Sequence record: SRR22947727_72
Length of the DNA stretch: 37,323 bases
Direction: 5' to 3' (one strand)
The position numbers were made by a program, and so were the translations under genes. This document shows, piece by piece, positions 1 through 18,858 of the stretch. Below the pieces are notes generated by a model that worked only from the letters and a program-made list of their open reading frames with translations, was not told the DNA's origin and made no database searches. Position 1 is the stretch's first letter. Each line of letters opens with the position of its first letter.

Positions 1-55
1 TAATTTTAATTTTCTATTGATTTTTTATTTAAATTTAGTCAAGATAAGACTTATT

Positions 56-1420
56 ATGACAGACTCTATAAAATACATACTTGAAGAATCGAAAGCGCCA
101 AAATCTTGGTATAATATTAACTCTGATTTACCAAGTCCTCCACCACCACCTTTGCATCCAGGAACAAAACAGCCAGCAGGACCAGATGATTTTGCCCCAC
201 TATTTCCTATGGGCTTAATAATGCAAGAGGTTTCAACAGAAAGAGAAATTGAAATACCTGAGCCAGTAAGAGAGATTTACAAACAGTGGAGGCCTTCACC
301 TTTGTTTAGAGCAAGAAGGTTAGAAAAATATCTAGATACACCGGCAAAAATTTATTACAAGTATGAGGGTGTAAGTCCTACAGGAAGTCATAAGCCCAAT
401 ACTGCAGTTCCGCAGGCATTTTTTAATAAAGAAGAAGGTGTTAAAAAAATATTTACTGAAACAGGAGCAGGTCAATGGGGAAGTTCTTTAGCTTTTGCCG
501 GACAGATGTTCGGTATAGATATAGAGGTTTTTATGGTTAAGGTAAGTTTTGATCAAAAACCTTACAGAAAACTTATGATGCAAACTTTTGGTGGAACTTG
601 CCACCCAAGTCCATCTGAACTTACTGATTTTGGAAAAAAACTGTTATCAGAAGATCCTAACAATCCTGGAAGTTTGGGTATTGCAATTTCTGAAGCTATT
701 GAGGCAGTTGTAAAAAGTGAGGGTAAGGCAAAATATGCTCTTGGAAGTGTTTTAGGTCATGTTCTTTTACATCAAACTATCAATGGCAATGAAGCAATAC
801 TTCAAATGGAGCAAGCTGGAGATTACCCAGATATAATAGTAGGTTGTACTGGAGGTGGTAGTAATTTAGCAGGTTTAATGTTTCCTTTCTTAGGTCAACA
901 ATTAAGAGGTGGTCAAAAGATTGATATAATAGGCTGTGAACCTCTTTCTTGCCCCTCTTTTACAAAAGGTACATATGCCTATGATCATGGAGATATGGCT
1001 AGAATGACCCCACTAATTAAAATGCATACCTTGGGTTCTGATTTTCTTCCACCAGCAAATCACTCTGGAGGATTAAGATATCACGGCATGTCTTATCATT
1101 TAAGTCATTTGTATGACCTAGGGTTAATGAGAGCTAAAGCTTATGGTCAAAAAGATTGTTTTAAAGCTGGAGTATTATTTGGAAAGGAAGAGGGCATTAT
1201 CCCTGCTCCTGAAGGAAACCATGCTGTCAAGGGGGCTATTGATGCTGCTTTAGAGTGTAAAGAAAAAGGCGAGTCAAAAACAATCTTGTTTAATCTTTGT
1301 GGACATGGTTATTTTGACATGTCAGCATATGATGATTATTTTAGTGGAAGACTTGCTGATGACTTTTATGATGAAGAGACAGCCAATAAATCTCTGTCTG
1401 CTTTACCTGAAATAGCATAA
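56..1420 (+). CDS. trpB2: TrpB2-type (stand-alone) tryptophan synthase beta-like PLP enzyme
   Basis: PKSWYNI N-terminus, YKYEGVSPTGSHKPNTA (PLP Lys), TETGAGQWG, GGGSN, GGLRYHG and NLCGHG motifs. ATG at 56 is preferred over TTG at 17. No trpA follows it. Confidence 0.9.
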   Translation: MTDSIKYILEESKAPKSWYNINSDLPSPPPPPLHPGTKQPAGPDDFAPLFPMGLIMQEVSTEREIEIPEPVREIYKQWRPSPLFRARRLEKYLDTPAKIYYKYEGVSPTGSHKPNTAVPQAFFNKEEGVKKIFTETGAGQWGSSLAFAGQMFGIDIEVFMVKVSFDQKPYRKLMMQTFGGTCHPSPSELTDFGKKLLSEDPNNPGSLGIAISEAIEAVVKSEGKAKYALGSVLGHVLLHQTINGNEAILQMEQAGDYPDIIVGCTGGGSNLAGLMFPFLGQQLRGGQKIDIIGCEPLSCPSFTKGTYAYDHGDMARMTPLIKMHTLGSDFLPPANHSGGLRYHGMSYHLSHLYDLGLMRAKAYGQKDCFKAGVLFGKEEGIIPAPEGNHAVKGAIDAALECKEKGESKTILFNLCGHGYFDMSAYDDYFSGRLADDFYDEETANKSLSALPEIA

Positions 1421-1430
1421 ACTGTTTTAG

Positions 1431-1459
1431 TATAAGAAATTATTGTTTTTTTTCTTATA
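1431..1459. repeat. AT-only inverted repeat after trpB2 (possible weak terminator or protein-binding site)
   Basis: TATAAGAAA (1431-1439) and TTTCTTATA (1451-1459). A second palindrome, AATTTAAT-T-ATTAAATT, lies at 1461-1477. Confidence 0.3.
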
Positions 1460-1480
1460 AAATTTAATTATTAAATTCCT

Positions 1481-1590
1481 TATAAAGGGAGAGATTAATT
1501 TAATTAACGCCGAAGGAGCAACGTCCCGGAAACTCTCAGGCAAAAGGACCTTTGTATTTAATGTCTGAAGATTTATAATAATCAACAGAG
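1481..1590 (+). promoter_or_regulatory. Glycine riboswitch, singlet aptamer plus 3' ghost-aptamer hairpin
   Basis: Canonical core GGAGAGA...CGCCGAAGGAGCAA...GGAAACTCTCAGGCAAAAGGAC. P1 is TATAAAGG (1481-1488) paired with CCTTTGTA (1549-1556). P2 is TTAATT/AATTAA (1495-1507). A downstream hairpin TCTG-AA-GATT-loop-AATC-AA-CAGA lies at 1564-1589. Confidence 0.93.
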
Positions 1591-1607
1591 GGCTAGATTG
1601 AACTAAT

Positions 1608-2798
1608 ATGGTTAATGTTTGGCCTTTTCATGGTACTCGCCCTTACAATCAGGATGCAAAAACTTTAATTGCGCCTTCAACAGATCATTTAAGTATTGAA
1701 AATATTAAGATATTTAGAAAAAATAATTATTGGAATTACTTGAAAGTTCTTAATCCTGTAGGTCAATTAAAAGAAAAAGACTCCTTAACAGAGGCTAGAG
1801 AGCATTTTAATGAAATGAAAGATAATGATGTTATTAAAAAAGACAGTGAACTGAATTTTTATATTTATCAAATTGAGCTTGGAGATCACAAGCAGTTAGG
1901 TTTTTTATCTCTTGCATCTGTAAGTGACTTTGAAAAAAATATTATAAAACCACACGAGAAAATTTATCAAAGTAGAAAAGTTGAAAGAGCTGATCAAATG
2001 ATGAATATCAAAACACAAATTGGGCCAATCTACGTTTCTTACCCATCAGAAAAAAATTTATCAAATTTTTTGTTATCAAAAACAAAAAATCCACCATCTT
2101 ATGATTTTGAAAGTTTTGATAATTCAATCCATAAACTATGGTGCATAAATGATAAATCTTCTCTTGCAGAGTTTCAAAATTTAACGAAAGTTATTAGTCA
2201 TCTTTATATAGCTGATGGTCATCATAGAATGGGTGCAATGCAACACATAAAAAATACCAATCCATTAAATGATAAATTTATGATCGCAGCATTTCCCTCA
2301 AATCAATGTAAAATTTTTGATTATAACAGAGTTATAAAAGATTTAAATGGTCTTTCAAAAGATGATTTTCTTGAAACTTTATCAAAAGATTTTAAAATTT
2401 CAAAAATTGATAGAGCCTATAAACCAAAAGTAAAAAAAGAGTTTGGGATATATCATGACAAACAATGGTATGTTGCAAATTTGACAAGTATTTTAAATTC
2501 AGATAATTTTATTGATGATTTAGATATTAATATTTTAAATAATTTATGTTTGACAAAAATTCTTAATATCCAAGATGTCAATAATGATGAAAGAATAAGA
2601 TTTATTGCTGGCTGTCACGGTTTAAGTACTTTAGAAAAAAAAGTAGATGACAACCCCAATAGTATTGCTTTTTCAATCTTCCCATCAGAGATTTCTGATG
2701 TTATGAGAGTTGCTGATAATAATCTGACTATGCCGCCTAAGTCAACTTGGTTTGATCCAAAACCCCTTGATGGTTTGGTTGTGTATGAGTTTAATTAA
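1608..2798 (+). CDS. DUF1015 family protein
   Basis: IKPHEK, LYIADGHHR and C-terminal MPPKSTWFDPKP motifs are typical of DUF1015. It lies next to serC/serA. Confidence 0.85.
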   Translation: MVNVWPFHGTRPYNQDAKTLIAPSTDHLSIENIKIFRKNNYWNYLKVLNPVGQLKEKDSLTEAREHFNEMKDNDVIKKDSELNFYIYQIELGDHKQLGFLSLASVSDFEKNIIKPHEKIYQSRKVERADQMMNIKTQIGPIYVSYPSEKNLSNFLLSKTKNPPSYDFESFDNSIHKLWCINDKSSLAEFQNLTKVISHLYIADGHHRMGAMQHIKNTNPLNDKFMIAAFPSNQCKIFDYNRVIKDLNGLSKDDFLETLSKDFKISKIDRAYKPKVKKEFGIYHDKQWYVANLTSILNSDNFIDDLDINILNNLCLTKILNIQDVNNDERIRFIAGCHGLSTLEKKVDDNPNSIAFSIFPSEISDVMRVADNNLTMPPKSTWFDPKPLDGLVVYEFN

Positions 2799-2801
2799 AA
2801 T

Positions 2802-3965
2802 ATGGAAAAACCAATTATAAAACCTGAAAATCCAAATTTCTCAAGCGGTCCTTGTGCAAAAAGACCAGGTTGGAAGATTGAAAATTTAAAGAATGCTAAT
2901 ACTGGTAGATCACATCGATCTGGTGAATCGAAATCTAAACTAAAACTTGTAATTGATAAATCTAAACAGTTATTAAACCTTCCTGATGATTATGTTGTAG
3001 GTATAATGCCTGGATCAGATACCGGAGCTCTAGAAGCATCATTATGGTCTTTGCTAGGTTTAAGAGGTGTGGATATTTTAGCTTGGGAAAACTTTGGTAA
3101 AGATTGGGTTCAGGATGTTGTAAAACAACTGAAATTATCAGGTCTGAATGTTCATGATGTAGACTATGGAGATTTCCCAGATGTAACAAAAGTTAATTTT
3201 AAGAATGATGTAATTTTTACATGGAATGGAACAACATCAGGAGTTAAAGTTCCAAATGTTGATTGGATACCAGATGAAAGGGAGGGATTAACTATTTGTG
3301 ATGCAACATCTGCTATTTTTGCTATGCCTATTGATTACAGTAAATGCGATGTTATTACTTGGTCCTGGCAAAAAGTTTTAGGAGGAGAGGCCGCTCATGG
3401 AATGATAGCAATGTCTCCAAGATCACTAAATAGATTAGAAACTTATACACCTGAATGGCCAATACCTAAAGTTTTTAGAATAGCTAATAATCAAAAAGTA
3501 ATAAAAGGTATATTTGAGGGCAGCACTATAAATACTCCTTCAATGATTTGCGTAGAAGATGCACTTGACGGTTTGAATTGGGCTGAAGAAAATGGTGGTT
3601 TAGAATTTTTACTTAATACATCAAAAAAATCATTAGATATTATTTATAACTGGGTTCAAAAAAATGATTGGGTAACTTTTCTTTCCAATAATAAAGATAT
3701 GCAATATTTATCAAATACTGGCATAACTTTTAAGATTTGTGAAAGCTGGTTTTTAGATAAAGCTGAAGAAGAGCAACGATCAATAGTAAAAGGAATATGC
3801 AAGGTATTATCTGAAGAAAATGTAGCTCATGATATAAATGGTTATGCTAAAGCCCCACCATCTTTCAGAGTTTGGGCAGGAGGTACTGTCGAGCCTGATA
3901 ATATTGAGAAATTATTACCTTGGTTAGAGTGGGCTTATATGAAAGCAAAAGAAATCAATGACTAA
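2802..3965 (+). CDS. serC: Phosphoserine aminotransferase (Methanosarcina/alphaproteobacterial type)
   Basis: NFSSGPCAKRPGW, GRSHRS, WNGTTSGV, DATSA, SWQKVLGGEAAHG (PLP Lys) and TINTPSM. Confidence 0.93.
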   Translation: MEKPIIKPENPNFSSGPCAKRPGWKIENLKNANTGRSHRSGESKSKLKLVIDKSKQLLNLPDDYVVGIMPGSDTGALEASLWSLLGLRGVDILAWENFGKDWVQDVVKQLKLSGLNVHDVDYGDFPDVTKVNFKNDVIFTWNGTTSGVKVPNVDWIPDEREGLTICDATSAIFAMPIDYSKCDVITWSWQKVLGGEAAHGMIAMSPRSLNRLETYTPEWPIPKVFRIANNQKVIKGIFEGSTINTPSMICVEDALDGLNWAEENGGLEFLLNTSKKSLDIIYNWVQKNDWVTFLSNNKDMQYLSNTGITFKICESWFLDKAEEEQRSIVKGICKVLSEENVAHDINGYAKAPPSFRVWAGGTVEPDNIEKLLPWLEWAYMKAKEIND

Positions 3966-4896
3966 AGTTTTAATCTCCGATGCTATGGATGGCATTGCTG
4001 AAAAAATACTTACGTCAAACAAAATTGATGTCGATGTAAAAACTGATTTTAATATTGAAGAACTAAAAGATAAAATTTCAGAATATGATGGATTAATCAT
4101 TAGATCGGCAACGAAAGTAACAAAAGAAATTATTGAAAGTGCTAAAAATTTAAAAATAATTGGAAGAGCTGGAGCTGGTGTTGATAATATTGATTTAGTC
4201 ACTGCTAAAGAAAAAAAAATTATAATTATGAATACTCCTGGAGGCAATACCAATGCAACTGCTGAGCATACACTTGCATTACTTATGTCTCTTTCGAGAA
4301 AAATTTCTAAAGCTGATATTTCAACACATAAAGGTGAATGGGCAAAGAAAAAACTTAAAGGTAATGAAATTAAAGGAAAGACAATAGGAATTATTGGTTT
4401 TGGAAACGTTGGTAGAAGATTTGCAGAAATATGCCAAGTTCTCGGTCTTAAAGTTTTAATTGTTTCCAAATTATTTACAGCTGTAAAAGATCAATATCCT
4501 GAATATAGTTCTTGTGATTTAAGCGAAGTTTTACAACAAGCGGATATAATAAGTTTTCACTGTAAACCAAATATAGATGGATCTTCAGTTATTGCTTCAA
4601 AAGAATTAAATTTAATGAAGAAAGCTGCACTTATTATTAATACTGCAAGAGGCAATCTTGTTTCTGAAGTAGATTTATGTGATGCTATAAAAGCAAATAA
4701 AATTGGTGGAGCAGCAATAGATGTTTTTGAAACTGAACCTGCTACGAATAATGCTCTTTTTGGTCTTGAGAATGTATTATTAACGCCACATATTGCAGCT
4801 TCTACAAGTGAAGCTCAAATAATTGTAGCTGAAATGGTAGCTAATCAGTTTGTTGAATTTTTTTTAAATAATAAAGTAATTAACGAAGTTACTTGA
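3958..4896 (+). CDS. serA: D-3-phosphoglycerate dehydrogenase-like 2-hydroxyacid dehydrogenase, short form without ACT domain
   Basis: IIRSATKVT, GRAGAGVDNID, MNTPGGNT, GFGNVG, INTARG, DVFETEP and TPHIAAST. It overlaps the serC stop. Confidence 0.8.
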   Translation: MTKVLISDAMDGIAEKILTSNKIDVDVKTDFNIEELKDKISEYDGLIIRSATKVTKEIIESAKNLKIIGRAGAGVDNIDLVTAKEKKIIIMNTPGGNTNATAEHTLALLMSLSRKISKADISTHKGEWAKKKLKGNEIKGKTIGIIGFGNVGRRFAEICQVLGLKVLIVSKLFTAVKDQYPEYSSCDLSEVLQQADIISFHCKPNIDGSSVIASKELNLMKKAALIINTARGNLVSEVDLCDAIKANKIGGAAIDVFETEPATNNALFGLENVLLTPHIAASTSEAQIIVAEMVANQFVEFFLNNKVINEVT

Positions 4897-6754
4897 TAAA
4901 AAGTTCAGTTAGACTCTCCACATATCCAGAAGGATTTGAGAGAACATTACCATCTAAAATATTAGCTTGATCTAAAATTATTTGAGAGATTTTTTTATGG
5001 TCAAACTCATTTAGATTATTAGACATCTTAATAATCATAGGGTGATCTGCATTTATCTCTAAAATCTTTTTTGAGTCAGGTGTTTTTTGATTGTGCATCT
5101 TCATTAGTTTTTCCATGTTGATATCCATCCCTGACTCTTCAGCAACTAGTAACACTGGGCTTTTAGTTAATCTGTCTGAAACTATCACATCAGATATTTT
5201 ATCTTTAAGTTCATTCTTTAATAATGCGGTCAAATCATTGATTTTATTATCTATTTTTTTATTATCCTTACTTTTTTCTTCGCTTTGTTTATCTCCTACT
5301 TTTGAAAGATCAACTTTACCTTTTGTTATGGATTTGAACTCAAATTCTTTATATTTACCTATATTTTGAAGCCAAAATTCATCGACTGCATCGGTCATAA
5401 ACAATACTGGAATTTTTTTATCAAGAAATGACTCTAATTGAGGGGAGTTTTTAATATATTCTTTGTCTGTATTTGCGAAATAATAGATTTCTTTTTGATC
5501 TAGTGCCATTTTTTCTACATAGTTGTCTAAAGATATTGAATCACTATTTAGTGAATTTTCAAATCTTAATAAGTTGAGAATTTTTTCATGATGATCATTA
5601 AACTCATAAAGACCCTCTTTTATTACGGCACCAAAATTCTTCCAAAAATCTAAAAATTTAGCATCATCTTTTTTAGCTATTGAATTTATTTCATTTAAAA
5701 CTTTATTGGTTATTCCCTTTTTAATTTTCTCTATAATAGGGTTATTTTGAAGCATTTCTCTGCTAATATTTAGTGAAATATCTTGAGAGTCAACGACACC
5801 TGGAATAAATCGGAGCCAGTTTGGCATTATTTCATCACATTCATCAGTAATAAAGACCTTTTGCACATATAATTTAATTTTATTTTTTTTCTCAGAATTA
5901 AATAAATCCATGGGTTGATTAGTTGGGAGATACAACAATGCTTTATAATTTATGACACCCTCAGCATTATAATGGATTGTTTTTAATGGGTCATCGAAGT
6001 TAAAGGATATATTGTTATAAAACTGTTTGTAGTCTTCTTCTTTAATATCTTTTTTATCTTTTAGCCAAAGAGGATCACCTTCATTTATTTTTTCTTCTTT
6101 TTCTTTAGTATTGTCTAGATCATCTAACAATATTGGAAATGGAATATAATTTGAATATTTCGTTATTATTGATCTTAATCGAAATGCATCAAGAAATTCT
6201 TCAGCATCTTTCTTGATATTTAGCTTTATAATTGAGCCTCTTTTTTTATTTTCAATTTCTTCAATTGTATAGTTTTCTTTACCATTTGATTTCCATAGAT
6301 ATGACTTTTCTTCTTCTGCACTTTTTGAAGTAACTTCAACTGTATCAGAGACCATGTATGATGAATAGAAGCCTACGCCAAATTGTCCAATAGCTGAGAC
6401 CTTGGAGTCCTTTTTATCTTTCATGGCTTCCATAAATTTGCTTGTTCCAGATCTCGCAATAGTTCCAAGGTTATCTATTAATTCTTGATTAGACATTCCG
6501 ATACCATTGTCTTCAATCTCTATATATTTTTTCTTTTTGGATACCCTGACATTGATCTTTAGTTCCTTATCGTCACCTAGAATGTTTTTTTTAGAAAGTG
6601 ATTGATACCTTAGTTTCTCACATGCATCTGCTGAATTTGAAATTAGCTCTCTAAGAAATATTTCTCTTTCACTATAAAGAGAATTAGCAACTAAATCTAA
6701 AAGTTTACTTACTTCAGCTTGAAAACTATGATTTTTTGTTGTTTTATCTGTCAT
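4889..6754 (-). CDS. htpG: Hsp90 chaperone HtpG
   Basis: FQAEV, SLYSEREIFLRELISNSADA, DNGIGM, GTIARSGT, IGQFGVGFYS and LNISREMLQ. Start is at 6754 or 6772. Confidence 0.97.
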   Translation of the reverse strand: MTDKTTKNHSFQAEVSKLLDLVANSLYSEREIFLRELISNSADACEKLRYQSLSKKNILGDDKELKINVRVSKKKKYIEIEDNGIGMSNQELIDNLGTIARSGTSKFMEAMKDKKDSKVSAIGQFGVGFYSSYMVSDTVEVTSKSAEEEKSYLWKSNGKENYTIEEIENKKRGSIIKLNIKKDAEEFLDAFRLRSIITKYSNYIPFPILLDDLDNTKEKEEKINEGDPLWLKDKKDIKEEDYKQFYNNISFNFDDPLKTIHYNAEGVINYKALLYLPTNQPMDLFNSEKKNKIKLYVQKVFITDECDEIMPNWLRFIPGVVDSQDISLNISREMLQNNPIIEKIKKGITNKVLNEINSIAKKDDAKFLDFWKNFGAVIKEGLYEFNDHHEKILNLLRFENSLNSDSISLDNYVEKMALDQKEIYYFANTDKEYIKNSPQLESFLDKKIPVLFMTDAVDEFWLQNIGKYKEFEFKSITKGKVDLSKVGDKQSEEKSKDNKKIDNKINDLTALLKNELKDKISDVIVSDRLTKSPVLLVAEESGMDINMEKLMKMHNQKTPDSKKILEINADHPMIIKMSNNLNEFDHKKISQIILDQANILDGNVLSNPSGYVESLTELFIK

Positions 6755-15834: not shown

Positions 15835-18800
15835 ATGAGTAATATGTCAGTTTTTGAAGAACAGCCACCTATAATTAATGTTTCTTCTTTTTCCGTTTGG
15901 TTAAAAAAAAACTATTCTTTTTTTAAGTCAAAGAGCATTAAATTATCACGTCTAAACAGTGAAAGAGATATTAATTTATTAATAAACGGAGTTGGCACAA
16001 AACAATACGTTGTCAAAATTTCAAACCCAAAAGAATCTTTAGATCAGCTTGAGTATCAAGATTTGTTAATCAATCATTTAAGACAAAGCATTCAGTTAAG
16101 AAAAATATATCCAGAAATTTTACATAAAAAAATTTTATTTTACAAAGATAGAAATGAAAGAAGATGTGCAGTTAGAATTCTTACTTTCATAGACGGAGAT
16201 ATGTATGCAAAATCAAAAAATAGTGACCACACTGAAAAGTCTTTAGGTAAATTATTAGCCCTTCAATCTAACCAATTAAAAAGCTTTATTAACAACCGAG
16301 CTATTAGAAAATTTGAATGGGATCCTTCAGATATAAGATGGACTAAAAAATTTATTAAATTATTTAAAAGTGACAATAAAAATATAATTAAAAATACTAT
16401 AAACGAACATGAGAAGTTTGTTTTTAAAAATATAAAAAATTTAAAACATGCTATTACTCATGGCGATCCAAATGATTATAATATTGTTGTAAAAAATGAA
16501 AAAATAATTGGCTTTATTGATTTTGGTGATTCAATTTATGCGCCTGTCATAAATGATTTAGCAATATCTCTTTCATACGCATTAATGGGTACTAAAAATT
16601 TTTACAAAAGTCTCCAAAATATTGTTGGTGCTTACAATGAGTTTTACAAACTTAGTGATCAAGATATTTATTCGCTATTATCTCTTATAAAGTCGCGTTT
16701 GGTAATTACTTTAGTAATGGCAGCGAAGCAGCGAAGAAAATATCCTGAAAATAAATATTTAAGCATCAGCGAAAATAATGCGTGGGATTTAATTTACAAG
16801 CTGGATAAAGTTGATCCATATTTTTTTATAGCTTCAATACGAGATATTTGTAACTTAGAGCCAATTTTACACTTTAGTAAAAAACTAAAGTTATTTAAAA
16901 GTCAGCAATTTGGTAATTTATTTGATTTTGATTTAAACAATGTAAATAAAAAAATTGTTAATTTTGATAAAAGTAGTTTTTTACTTAAAACAAATCCTTC
17001 AAATAATAAACTCGATAGCTTAGTTAGAAAATTCCTAAAAAAAGATATTGGTATTGGTTTATATAAAGAAAAAAGAAAAGTTTATAAAAGTAATCATTAC
17101 ATTTCTTCACTTAACCAGTTTGAAAGAAGAGACGTCCATCTAGGTATTGACATTTTTGTCGAAGAAAATACACAAATTAAGTCGCCTCTAAAAGGCAAAG
17201 TCATCATTTTGCATAATAATAATTTCAAATATGATTATGGTCCTACGGTTATTTTAGAGCACAAAATTAACAATTATTATTTTTTTACTTTGTATGGTCA
17301 TTTATCTAAAAAATGTTTGAAGAAACTCAAAGTTGGTCAAATTGTTAAGAAAGGAGAATGGATTGGAGAAATTGGAGATTATAAAATTAATGGTAATTGG
17401 CCTCCTCATTTACATTTTCAAATTATGACATCACTTCTTAACGAAGTTGATAATTTTCCTGGAGTTGGAGAGGAGTATTTGTTAAAAATTTGGGAACAAA
17501 TTTCACCTGATCCAAATATTATTTTACAAATTCCTGAGACCTTTTTTACTAATAAAGTTAAAAAAGAAAAAATTTTATTAAAAAGAAAAAAAAATATAGC
17601 TCGTAATTTATCTATTTCATATCAAGAGCCTCTGCATATGCTTGAGGCAAAAGGACAGTTTTTTTATGATGAACAAGGAAGGAGGTATCTTGATTGTGTA
17701 AATAATATTTCTCATGTGGGCCACTCAAATAAACTTGTGCATAAAGCTCTAGTTGCACAAAATCTAAAATTGAATACCAATACTCGCTATCTTTATAATA
17801 TAATAAATGAATATAGTGATAGACTGTTAAAAACATTCCCAAAAAAATTAAATAAAATATTTTTTGTTTGCACTGGTTCTGAAGCTAATGATTTAGCTCT
17901 TCGAATTGCTAAAAACTATACAAAAGCCCAAAATGTATTGGTAATGGATAATGCTTATCACGGACACACAAATTCATTAATTGATTTAAGCCCATATAAA
18001 TTTAATAGTAAAGGTGGAGAAGGTAAAAAAGATTATGTTCATGTTTTAAGAATGCCTGATGAAATAAGAGGCAAATGGACAAAGAAAAATAATAAATGGA
18101 TAAATAAATATATTGATGAAGCTGAAGAAATAATCAACAATAAATTTAATAACAAAAATTCATTATCTAGTTTTTTCTTTGAAAGTATTCTAGGTTGTGG
18201 TGGTCAGATAGCATTACCCAAAGGGTATTTAAAGAATATTTTAAAGTTAGTGAGACAAAAAAATGCACTTTGTATTGCAGATGAAGTACAAACTGGTTTT
18301 GGAAGAGTGGGCAGTAATTTTTGGGCATTTCAAGAACATGGAATTGTTCCTGATATAGTAACTCTTGGAAAACCAATGGGTAATGGACATCCTATTGCTG
18401 CAGTTGTAACAACTAAAAAAATTGCAGATACTTTTAATAATGGAATGGAATATTTCAATTCTTTTGGAGGGAATCCTGTTTCATGTGCAGTGGGTAATGC
18501 TGTTTTAGACGTGATTGAAAAAGATAATTTACAAAAAAATTCAAAAGTTGTGGGTGATTATTTCATAAAAAAACTAAAAAATATTCAAAAAAAATTTCCA
18601 AATTTTATTAGTTATATTAGTGGCAAAGGATTATTTATTGGAATTGACTTAATTTGTAATGGAGATTTATTACTACCCAATGCAAAATTAGCAACTAAGC
18701 TAATTAACAATCTAAGATTAAAAGGCATTCTTTTAAGTACTGATGGTCCATTCAATAATGTAATCAAAATAAAACCTCCATTGGTTTTTAATAAAGATAA

Positions 18801-18858
18801 TGCTAATTCTGTTTGTAGAGAAATTGATAGTTTTTTAATTCATGAAAACAAAAAATAA
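15835..18858 (+). CDS. Fusion: APH-like (hydroxylysine kinase-like) kinase, M23 peptidase domain and class III PLP aminotransferase/phospho-lyase
   Basis: Kinase: [20 protein letters not shown]23: HLGID, YGHL, PPHLHFQ. PLP domain: [37 protein letters not shown]. Confidence 0.88.

Follow-up and report, generated by a model that had tools for sequence, protein, structure and literature searches.

The window analysed here, a stretch of 37,323 nucleotides (nt) from sequence record SRR22947727_72, carries a glycine aptamer and, directly downstream on the same strand, an operon of three genes that encode a DUF1015 protein, the phosphoserine transaminase SerC and a short SerA-type dehydrogenase (Table 1). 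The textbook role of glycine riboswitches is to regulate the breakdown and transport of glycine. The leader of this operon is real, well conserved and a member of a described riboswitch class, the type-1 singlet glycine riboswitches. Judged by class membership and anatomy, it is likely that glycine turns the operon ON. The association of the aptamer with these genes has been in print since 2007, and the analysis adds value through mechanism and physiology rather than by reporting the element. Its new and testable part is the likely ON logic, with its implications for the DUF1015 (SerBK) family and for glycine use in the marine clade that carries the operon.

Operon and glycine aptamer

Both strands of the window were searched against Rfam by cmscan, and RF00504 (Glycine) was the sole match above gathering (70.3 bits, E = 7.5e-13, against a gathering score of 32). 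The match covers positions 1–94 of the 94 model positions, and all upper-case consensus positions are matched. Thus the aptamer is canonical, not a variant. According to this comparison the glycine aptamer is real, and glycine is its expected ligand. The search had been proposed in the preliminary description of this DNA, which stated that a canonical glycine aptamer heads DUF1015-serC-serA; the single Rfam match, the gene models and RNA contigs that run from the aptamer into DUF1015 in three studies bear out this statement. The description had placed the element from 1481. The aptamer is present as described, but the match starts at 1476 and only P1 starts at 1481, the aptamer is single, and a conserved hairpin on its 3' side had not been mentioned.

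Table 1. Features of the leader and the operon in the window.
Feature	Position	Strand	Basis and remarks
TrpB2-type TrpB-like pyridoxal phosphate enzyme	2–1420	+	NF009057 702 bits, TIGR01415 606 bits, both above cut-off
Hairpin, A+T-rich, with T-run, 3' of trpB2; terminator-like	1431–1459	+	Minimum-free-energy fold
-10-like TATAAAAT	1456–1463	+	Overlaps the 1431–1459 hairpin
P0 5' strand UAUUAAA (candidate)	1469–1475	+	Complementary to linker 1557–1563; read from sequence
Glycine aptamer	1476–1561	+	RF00504; P1 1481–1488 with 1549–1556; P3b loop CCC 1525–1527
Linker, P0 3' strand UUUAAUG (candidate)	1557–1563	+	Pairs with 1469–1475
Ghost aptamer hairpin	1564–1589	+	UCUG-AA-GAUU / loop / AAUC-AA-CAGA; A-A/A-A internal loop
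Hairpin enclosing ribosome binding region and ATG 1608	1587–1628	+	Predicted folds; strands 1587–1598 and 1617–1628
GGG directly 3' of ghost	1590–1592	+	Invariant; candidate pseudoknot partner of CCC 1525–1527; G-C core of start-codon hairpin
DUF1015 (SerBK family)	1608–2798	+	PF06245 210.6 bits (gathering 25.8); starts 46 nt after aptamer
serC, phosphoserine transaminase	2802–3965	+	NF002841 594 bits (cut-off 477), TIGR01365 543 bits (cut-off 448)
Short serA-type D-2-hydroxyacid dehydrogenase, 312 residues	3958–4896	+	PF02826, PF00389; closest to 3-phosphoglycerate dehydrogenase

The three genes are tightly coupled, with a gap of 3 nt between DUF1015 and serC and an overlap of 8 nt between serC and serA. 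The SerA-type protein scores 313 bits with TIGR01327, under the cut-off of 454, because the regulatory C-terminal half is absent; positions 1–307 of the 525 model positions are matched, and no ACT or ASB part was found in the TIGR01327 and Pfam comparisons. Its best sequence matches in the PDB are catalytic domains of 3-phosphoglycerate dehydrogenases, including short forms (e.g. 6plf and 1wwk). By sequence comparison, the product is closest to the 3-phosphoglycerate dehydrogenase type, and this comparison also suggests its substrate.

The DUF1015 protein is about 30–35% identical to most DUF1015 representatives, and no PDB match was found for it at the sequence level. Its AlphaFold model, computed with 118 diverse relatives, has a predicted local distance difference test (pLDDT) score of 95.7 and a predicted template modelling (pTM) score of 0.92. 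The model was compared with the PDB by Foldseek, and nine matches with E ≤ 0.001 were detected (5.2e-8 to 1.2e-6). Each of these is a free serine kinase or a homologue, namely SbnI of two staphylococci, Thermococcus kodakarensis SerK (with phosphoserine and AMP/ADP) and the P. furiosus homologue. The TM-scores normalised by the target are 0.45–0.58, and the next match has an E-value of 1.3e-3 and a probability of 0.2. The modelled fold is serine-kinase-like.

The DUF1015 family has been named SerBK; it sits with serA and serC in genomes without serB (GapMind 2026, PMC13759103). According to the available part of the same source, a serB mutant of Escherichia coli is complemented by the Clostridium botulinum DUF1015, the fold is similar to that of the serine kinase SbnI, and the Bacteroides thetaiotaomicron DUF1015 is required for the use of serine as a nitrogen source. 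The family is proposed there to be a serine kinase usable for both synthesis and utilisation of serine, and how a kinase supports synthesis is left open (PMC13759103).

Transcripts of relatives at 90–99% identity were sought in four marine metatranscriptome runs from four studies. These data are assembled contigs, which carry no levels, true ends or glycine response, and stretches of DUF1015 or serA that are uncovered in some runs carry no meaning. Contigs in three runs begin at 1467–1478 and extend into DUF1015 (to 2008, 1828 and 2210), and DUF1015 and serC are bridged by contigs in three runs. The leader and DUF1015 are on one RNA-library molecule. The trpB2 contigs end at 1453 in two runs, and one contig bridges 1304–1630 in one run. 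The contig starts give a weak hint of a transcription start just before P1, as is reported for SAR11 glycine riboswitches (PMC5069720). The RNA depth peak over the aptamer core (1454–1580), with loose ends at 1508/1509 and 1543/1550, comes from glycine riboswitches of other organisms and is not extra expression.

Leader anatomy and its conservation

Forty-two distinct leaders were aligned, namely the window, 19 genome loci and 22 metagenome loci. The metagenomes gave 27 leaders of the family, from which one duplicate and four broken by a contig end were left out. In aptamer P1, six of the eight pairs change on both sides, and P2 and P3 are invariant or 100% paired. Overall, 94.4% of the cells are paired, compared with 30–47% when the partners are slid. 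The aptamer is 77–82% identical to aptamer 1 and 56–66% identical to aptamer 2 of the gcvT tandem in the same genomes (9/9 genome pairs), and type-1 singlets have been described as related to aptamer 1 in this way (Crum 2019, PMC6944388).

A second hairpin follows the aptamer after a short linker. A ghost aptamer on the 3' side, with a CUG/CAG base and purine-purine mispairs, defines the type-1 singlets (Ruff 2016, PMC5066625, as far as available). All eight pairs of the hairpin found here are 96–100% paired in the leaders. Alignment pair 141:148 is UA in 26 leaders and CG in 15, pair 132:161 is UA in 41 and AU in one, and the internal loop is AA/AA or GA/AA in all 42. P1 is long (8 base pairs, bp) and the ghost stem is shorter, which is the pattern of type-1 singlets. 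The P3b loop CCC is present in 42/42 leaders, and the GGG sits 1–2 nt after the ghost CAG in every one of them. According to the published rule for type-1 singlets (PMC6239177), CCC and GGG are predicted to form a pseudoknot. A leader-linker P0 helix with a kink-turn is also reported as a feature of glycine riboswitches (PMC6239177, PMC5066625); the P0 columns here are 77% paired with zero changes on both sides (alignment A3, the 42 sequences), and P0 is a candidate only. Compared with the described class, the single aptamer, the 3' ghost with its mispairs, the C-run and the G-run are all present, and the leader is by these features a type-1 singlet glycine riboswitch.

The start codon of DUF1015 lies in a further hairpin. 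In every fold, the strand AGAGGGCUAGAU (1587–1598; AGA-GGGC-UAGAU) pairs with codons 4–7, GUUUGGCCUUUU (1617–1628), and this pairing encloses the start region. The 3' strand covers Trp5-Pro6-Phe7, and GGG provides the only G-C pairs of the hairpin. No Shine-Dalgarno sequence was found at a working distance; the GGG is 15 nt from the ATG, and an A-rich stretch precedes the ATG. In 40 of the 42 leaders, CCT encodes Pro6, the residue whose codon pairs with the G-run; one exception is CCC, which turns a G-U into a G-C pair. By contrast, the Pro12 codon is CCT in 16, CCC in 14, CCA in 11 and CCG in one.

Variants of this region were observed in several leaders. The metagenome leaders L101 and L108 have a second, well-placed Shine-Dalgarno-like AAGGA or AAGGGA 5–6 nt before the ATG, and their codon 8 is Lys, not an aromatic residue. 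L108 uses CCA for Pro6, and its CCAUU is complementary to the start codon itself (AAUGG), a variant platform. The base of the ghost is lengthened in L017 (CAACUG/CAGUUG) and in L005, L107 and L137 (AUCUG/CAGAU) by changes on the linker and post-ghost sides, using bases that in other leaders join the start-codon hairpin. Competition between the ghost and start-codon helices would predict such lengthening.

Other pairings were considered and rejected or set aside. An anti-sequestor formed by the P1 3' strand CCUUUGU and ACAGA(A)GG has 7 bp in the window, and the changes in P1 are not followed in L003, L013, L017, L018, L101 and L108. A GAUY 'mimic' between GGGC and the ATG might compete for pairing with the 3' strand of the ghost. 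Roughly one leader in three lacks it, and a place in the inner stem of the start-codon hairpin, opposite codon 3 (GAU) or codon 4, accounts for it better. The linker AAUAUCU is complementary to codons 2–4 (AGAUAUU) in most leaders, with zero covariation and codons fixed by the protein, and was set aside.

The distribution of the riboswitch was examined in a one-genome-per-species scan with DUF1015, which gave 80 loci (L001–L080). Marine data contain a great many close relatives of the protein, and the closest loci are labelled HIMB59, MarineAlpha5 and Pelagibacterales/SAR11 single amplified genome; by these loci, the lineage belongs to an abundant open-ocean HIMB59 / AEGEAN-169-like clade. In 19 of the 80 loci, the aptamer core is located some 100 nt upstream of the DUF1015 start, with a trpB2-DUF1015 spacer of 179–191 nt. 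The other 61 (L019–L077, L079 and L080) form a sister clade with about 66% protein identity and the same gene order. No aptamer core was found anywhere in these 61 loci, and the spacer is 44–47 nt (e.g. L020, 5955–6000). The riboswitch was either inserted into the trpB2-DUF1015 spacer or lost from it. The singlet resembles aptamer 1 of the gcvT tandem, as might be expected if that leader had been duplicated.

Genomes of 15 relatives, 14 of the aptamer-bearing clade and one of the sister clade, were searched with RF00504. Each of the 14 has a single aptamer at its DUF1015 locus, and ten also have one tandem pair; in the sister-clade genome, the single aptamer precedes gcvT. In two genomes that were scanned, the tandem is followed by gcvT-gcvH, and in the others the downstream frame is recognisable as the same gene. 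As far as shown by these incomplete assemblies, the glycine regulon of the clade comprises two operons, gcvT under the tandem and DUF1015-serC-serA under the singlet.

The tandem leaders (L083, L087, L088 and others) resemble the singlet in that a NCUG/CAGN helix is followed by a G-run which begins a start-codon hairpin. In all nine tandem leaders, the G-run directly after aptamer-2 P1 lies in the 5' strand of a hairpin around the Shine-Dalgarno sequence and start codon. These hairpins keep their pairing despite sequences that differ between lineages (AGGGCUU/AAGCUCU, GUGGUAAC/GUUGCCAU, GGGGCAAAG/CUUUGUCUC and GACAGAGG/CUCUGUC). Unlike the singlet, the tandem has an intact second aptamer and a separate AGGAG Shine-Dalgarno sequence, and the 3' strand of its hairpin lies in gcvT codons. 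From the shared platform, glycine would very probably act on gcvT and on DUF1015-serC-serA in the same direction.

Gene content was taken from the genomes of five relatives, all of them incomplete assemblies from single cells or bins. In these incomplete genomes, the serB of the haloacid dehalogenase type (TIGR00338) and the Fe-S serine dehydratase gene sdaA were each found in 0/5, and glyA was seen in 2/5. With both serB and the Fe-S serine dehydratase at 0/5, no connection of serine with central metabolism other than the operon is visible, whichever way the flow runs.

Direction of switching

The following mechanism is proposed. Without glycine, the AGA-GGGC-UAGAU strand would pair with codons 4–7, and the A-rich ribosome binding region and the ATG would be locked within the hairpin. 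With glycine, the aptamer would fold, the ghost hairpin would dock on it and capture AGA, and GGG would be pulled into the pseudoknot with the CCC of the P3b loop. The start-codon hairpin would then be deprived of its only G-C pairs and collapse, and ribosomes would be able to start translation. Such a switch is ON. Since the G-run of the pseudoknot is the core of the hairpin 5' strand, glycine binding should open the hairpin, not close it. We favour, with moderate confidence, the full reading that a type-1 singlet controls the translation start of SerBK(DUF1015)-serC-serA and that glycine turns it ON.

The behaviour of the class agrees with this direction. According to the accessible parts of the published work, all type-1 singlets of the first set were predicted to be ON (Ruff 2016, PMC5066625), 85% of type-1 singlets carry the C-run/G-run pseudoknot, and the ligand locks the G-run (Torgerson 2018, PMC6239177). 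The G-run often overlaps a helix of the alternative platform, the Clostridium tetani singlet is an ON switch in vitro, and mutation of its G-run impairs the glycine response (PMC6239177). Among the characterised genes, 93% of those after type-1 singlets are for glycine catabolism, and 99% of those after type-2 singlets are transporters (PMC6239177).

A metagenome pattern scan showed that the ghost motif CUGRAGA...AACAG also heads ten other true singlets before a gcvT-like frame. Five of these frames were confirmed as GCV_T by Pfam, and the other five are known by frame only; the remaining matches of the scan are tandems before GCV_T, GCV_H or DAO genes. The terminator 5' strand in the ten gcvT-like type-1 singlets is the ghost 3' strand, and this arrangement is, as read from the sequences, an ON design.

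The energy needed to open the ribosome binding region was calculated for the 42 leaders at 25 °C. The median is 10.9 kcal/mol with the ghost blocked, 10.7 kcal/mol with the ghost formed, and 7.3 kcal/mol with the ghost formed and GGG withheld. A drop of at least 3 kcal/mol with GGG withheld was obtained in 22/42 leaders. As controls, nine gcvT tandem leaders, which are expected to be ON, were treated in the same way, and seven drop. The model leans to ON. It supersedes an earlier apo/holo comparison without pseudoknot, in which nine values were artefactual, as the opened region overlapped enforced pairs.

Several results weigh against the ON reading. The direction is inferred solely from class membership and anatomy. 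CCC and GGG never vary, hence the pseudoknot has zero covariation support in this family. In the energy model, formation of the ghost alone opens nothing (see the medians above), the drop is below 3 kcal/mol in 20/42 leaders, the energy rises in a few (L013 and L161), and the two remaining gcvT controls are unchanged; the earlier pseudoknot-free model gave no ON signal in 8/9 gcvT controls. The start-codon hairpin is paired in 83% of cells in a fixed register, and its covariation is slight. Compared with synonymous recodings, it is not significantly more stable (median z -0.68, with 1/42 leaders below -1.64), since GGCCNUU is already imposed by Trp-Pro-Phe. Pairing of the Shine-Dalgarno region with the Pro-Phe codons is possible in the riboswitch-free sister clade as well, and part of the complementarity of the hairpin may stem from the protein sequence. 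The evidence for the importance of the hairpin is modest, and its repressing role is predicted. With glyA in just two of the five genomes, the absence of serB and sdaA is also unproven.

The preliminary description had proposed the opposite logic, an OFF switch by which glycine shuts down serine synthesis. In such a switch, glycine would favour the start-codon hairpin, de novo serine synthesis would stop, and serine would then be made via serine hydroxymethyltransferase and the glycine cleavage system. The operon is the phosphorylated serine pathway, so physiologically an OFF switch on biosynthesis is as sensible as an ON switch. With no serB found in the five incomplete genomes, the operon is probably needed for serine synthesis; a DUF1015 protein complements a serB mutant (PMC13759103), and a dehydrogenase without an ACT feedback domain leaves room for feedback at the RNA level. 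Plain secondary-structure folding lets the ghost and the start-codon hairpin form next to each other, and in L010–L012 and L015 the ribosome binding region is harder to open once the ghost is enforced. However, an OFF switch requires a glycine-free fold that prevents the hairpin, and both candidates tested for such a fold, the pairing of the P1 3' strand and the GAUY 'mimic', failed in the comparison of the leaders. In the available parts of the two sources, type-1 singlets are ON in all described cases, and OFF switches are type-2 singlets or tandems before transporters (PMC5066625, PMC6239177). The present leader has its ghost 3', not 5', of the aptamer, no conserved anti-sequestor was found in it, and its downstream gene is not for a transporter. 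The G-run that type-1 singlets use for the ligand-bound pseudoknot sits here in the hairpin 5' strand. We regard an OFF switch as unlikely, and the OFF logic of the preliminary description is probably wrong; the evidence leans to the catabolic or reverse role which that description had tied to glycine-induced expression. If OFF were correct, this would be the first OFF-acting type-1 singlet and an RNA-only feedback on serine synthesis.

The main action of the riboswitch could also lie elsewhere, for instance in Rho-dependent termination, in RNA decay or in a weak terminator composed of the hairpin and the U-run at 1625–1628, with the hairpin as a constant damper and a response in either direction. 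Plain thermodynamics showed no consistent difference between free folds and folds with the aptamer and ghost enforced, and secondary-structure energies alone yield no switch either way, gcvT leaders included. UUUU or UUUC follows the hairpin, and the pairing of Shine-Dalgarno region and codons in the riboswitch-free sister clade is comparable. Against this, the scan of 1350–1750 gave no terminator-like site, the hairpin interior of 20–27 nt is unlike that of intrinsic terminators, and RNA contigs from three studies cross the hairpin into the gene. Action at another level is quite improbable, though less so than the idea that the aptamer is a relic with no effect on regulation. In favour of a relic is the sister clade, which keeps the gene order with a short spacer and no aptamer in 61/61 loci, so the operon can work without one; but the fully conserved core, the compensatory changes of P1 and ghost across the 42 leaders, the aptamer in 14/14 clade genomes and the spacer length kept in 19/19 loci make this very hard to believe.

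Pathway, known systems and neighbouring features

With an ON switch, the operon would serve the use of glycine. Surplus glycine would be converted to serine, the glycine cleavage operon being switched on through the tandem with the same platform. Serine would then be converted to phosphoserine, 3-phosphohydroxypyruvate and 3-phosphoglycerate by SerBK, SerC and SerA in reverse. It is rather probable, with the kinase activity assigned by likeness of fold, that glycine induces this route from serine to 3-phosphoglycerate. For the whole proposal, that an abundant open-ocean clade uses a glycine riboswitch to induce the phosphorylated serine pathway run backwards, from glycine to 3-phosphoglycerate, we see even chances. 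The same enzymes must supply serine at low glycine, and therefore some basal expression must exist.

If true, glycine carbon would enter gluconeogenesis directly and at a low ATP cost in cells without a detected serine dehydratase. The riboswitch would be natural regulatory evidence for DUF1015 as a serine kinase in vivo, and would bear on the question of SerBK direction that the available part of the SerBK study leaves (PMC13759103). An ON switch would thus give an independent regulatory argument on the working direction of SerBK, and would mark an assimilation route for dissolved glycine in the surface ocean. Whichever way it switches, a glycine riboswitch stands before the one operon seen to connect serine with central carbon metabolism in these very abundant marine bacteria.

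The target itself, presented as unusual in the preliminary description, is not a discovery. Kazanov, Vitreschak and Gelfand (2007, PMC2211319) reported serC as a new glycine-riboswitch target in the Sargasso Sea and other metagenomes, and conserved single-aptamer glycine riboswitches before COG4198, which is DUF1015, in the Sargasso Sea data. In one Clostridium, Sun et al. (2013, PMC3766115) described a glycine riboswitch that governs serC and serA, and they noted how rarely serine genes occur in glycine regulons. The Sargasso Sea elements share with the present one the single aptamer, DUF1015 and an origin in marine surface DNA, and are very probably the same element. Unlike the present analysis, the available part of that account gives no ghost, platform, direction or function of COG4198, and the fragments were guessed to be of Firmicutes (PMC2211319). 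Meyer 2009 contains nothing on the DUF1015-serC-serA operon. In the literature on the glycine riboswitch, serA and DUF1015 and on AEGEAN-169, no account was found of the direction, the ghost and pseudoknot anatomy or the SerBK link for this marine family.

The available accounts of the type-1 singlets of Listeria monocytogenes and C. tetani (PMC5066625, PMC6239177) share with the present leader the likeness to aptamer 1, the 3' ghost, the C-run and the G-run, the overlap of the G-run with the alternative platform helix and, as a candidate, the leader-linker pairing. Unlike these, the leader in the window has a start-codon hairpin, i.e. a translational platform, instead of a terminator, and precedes SerBK-serC-serA instead of glycine cleavage genes; its P3b is minimal, and its G-run follows immediately after the ghost. 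SerBK is also found with serA and serC in Clostridioides difficile, C. botulinum and B. thetaiotaomicron, with the same three-gene set, DUF1015 replacing SerB and a kinase-like fold, but the available part of that study reports no glycine riboswitch for these operons (PMC13759103).

The malate synthase riboswitch of 'Candidatus Pelagibacter ubique' is alike in that it belongs to a streamlined marine alphaproteobacterium and that glycine opens carbon assimilation outside the glycine cleavage system. Tripp and co-workers are said to have described it in 2009 as glycine-activated. It differs in its target (glcB), its tandem architecture and its host, a glycine/serine auxotroph without serA or serC.

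The TrpB2-type gene is the upstream neighbour and lies outside the control of the riboswitch. It is a constant neighbour of DUF1015-serC-serA in both clades. TrpB2 enzymes reportedly use O-phosphoserine, a finding said to come from Busch and co-workers in 2014. The cluster may be centred on phosphoserine, and only the three downstream genes are behind the riboswitch. Consensus scans for promoters and terminators over 1350–1750 and 4700–5100 gave nothing useful, with no promoter or terminator at 1431–1459. Downstream of the operon, htpG lies on the opposite strand. Farther along the + strand, 15835–18858 encodes a protein of 1007 residues, which scores 996 bits with NF004799 (PRK06148, 'hypothetical protein'), below the cut-off of 1128. 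Its N-terminal 570 residues have no match in the scan table, and its C-terminal 430 residues are a class-III aminotransferase.

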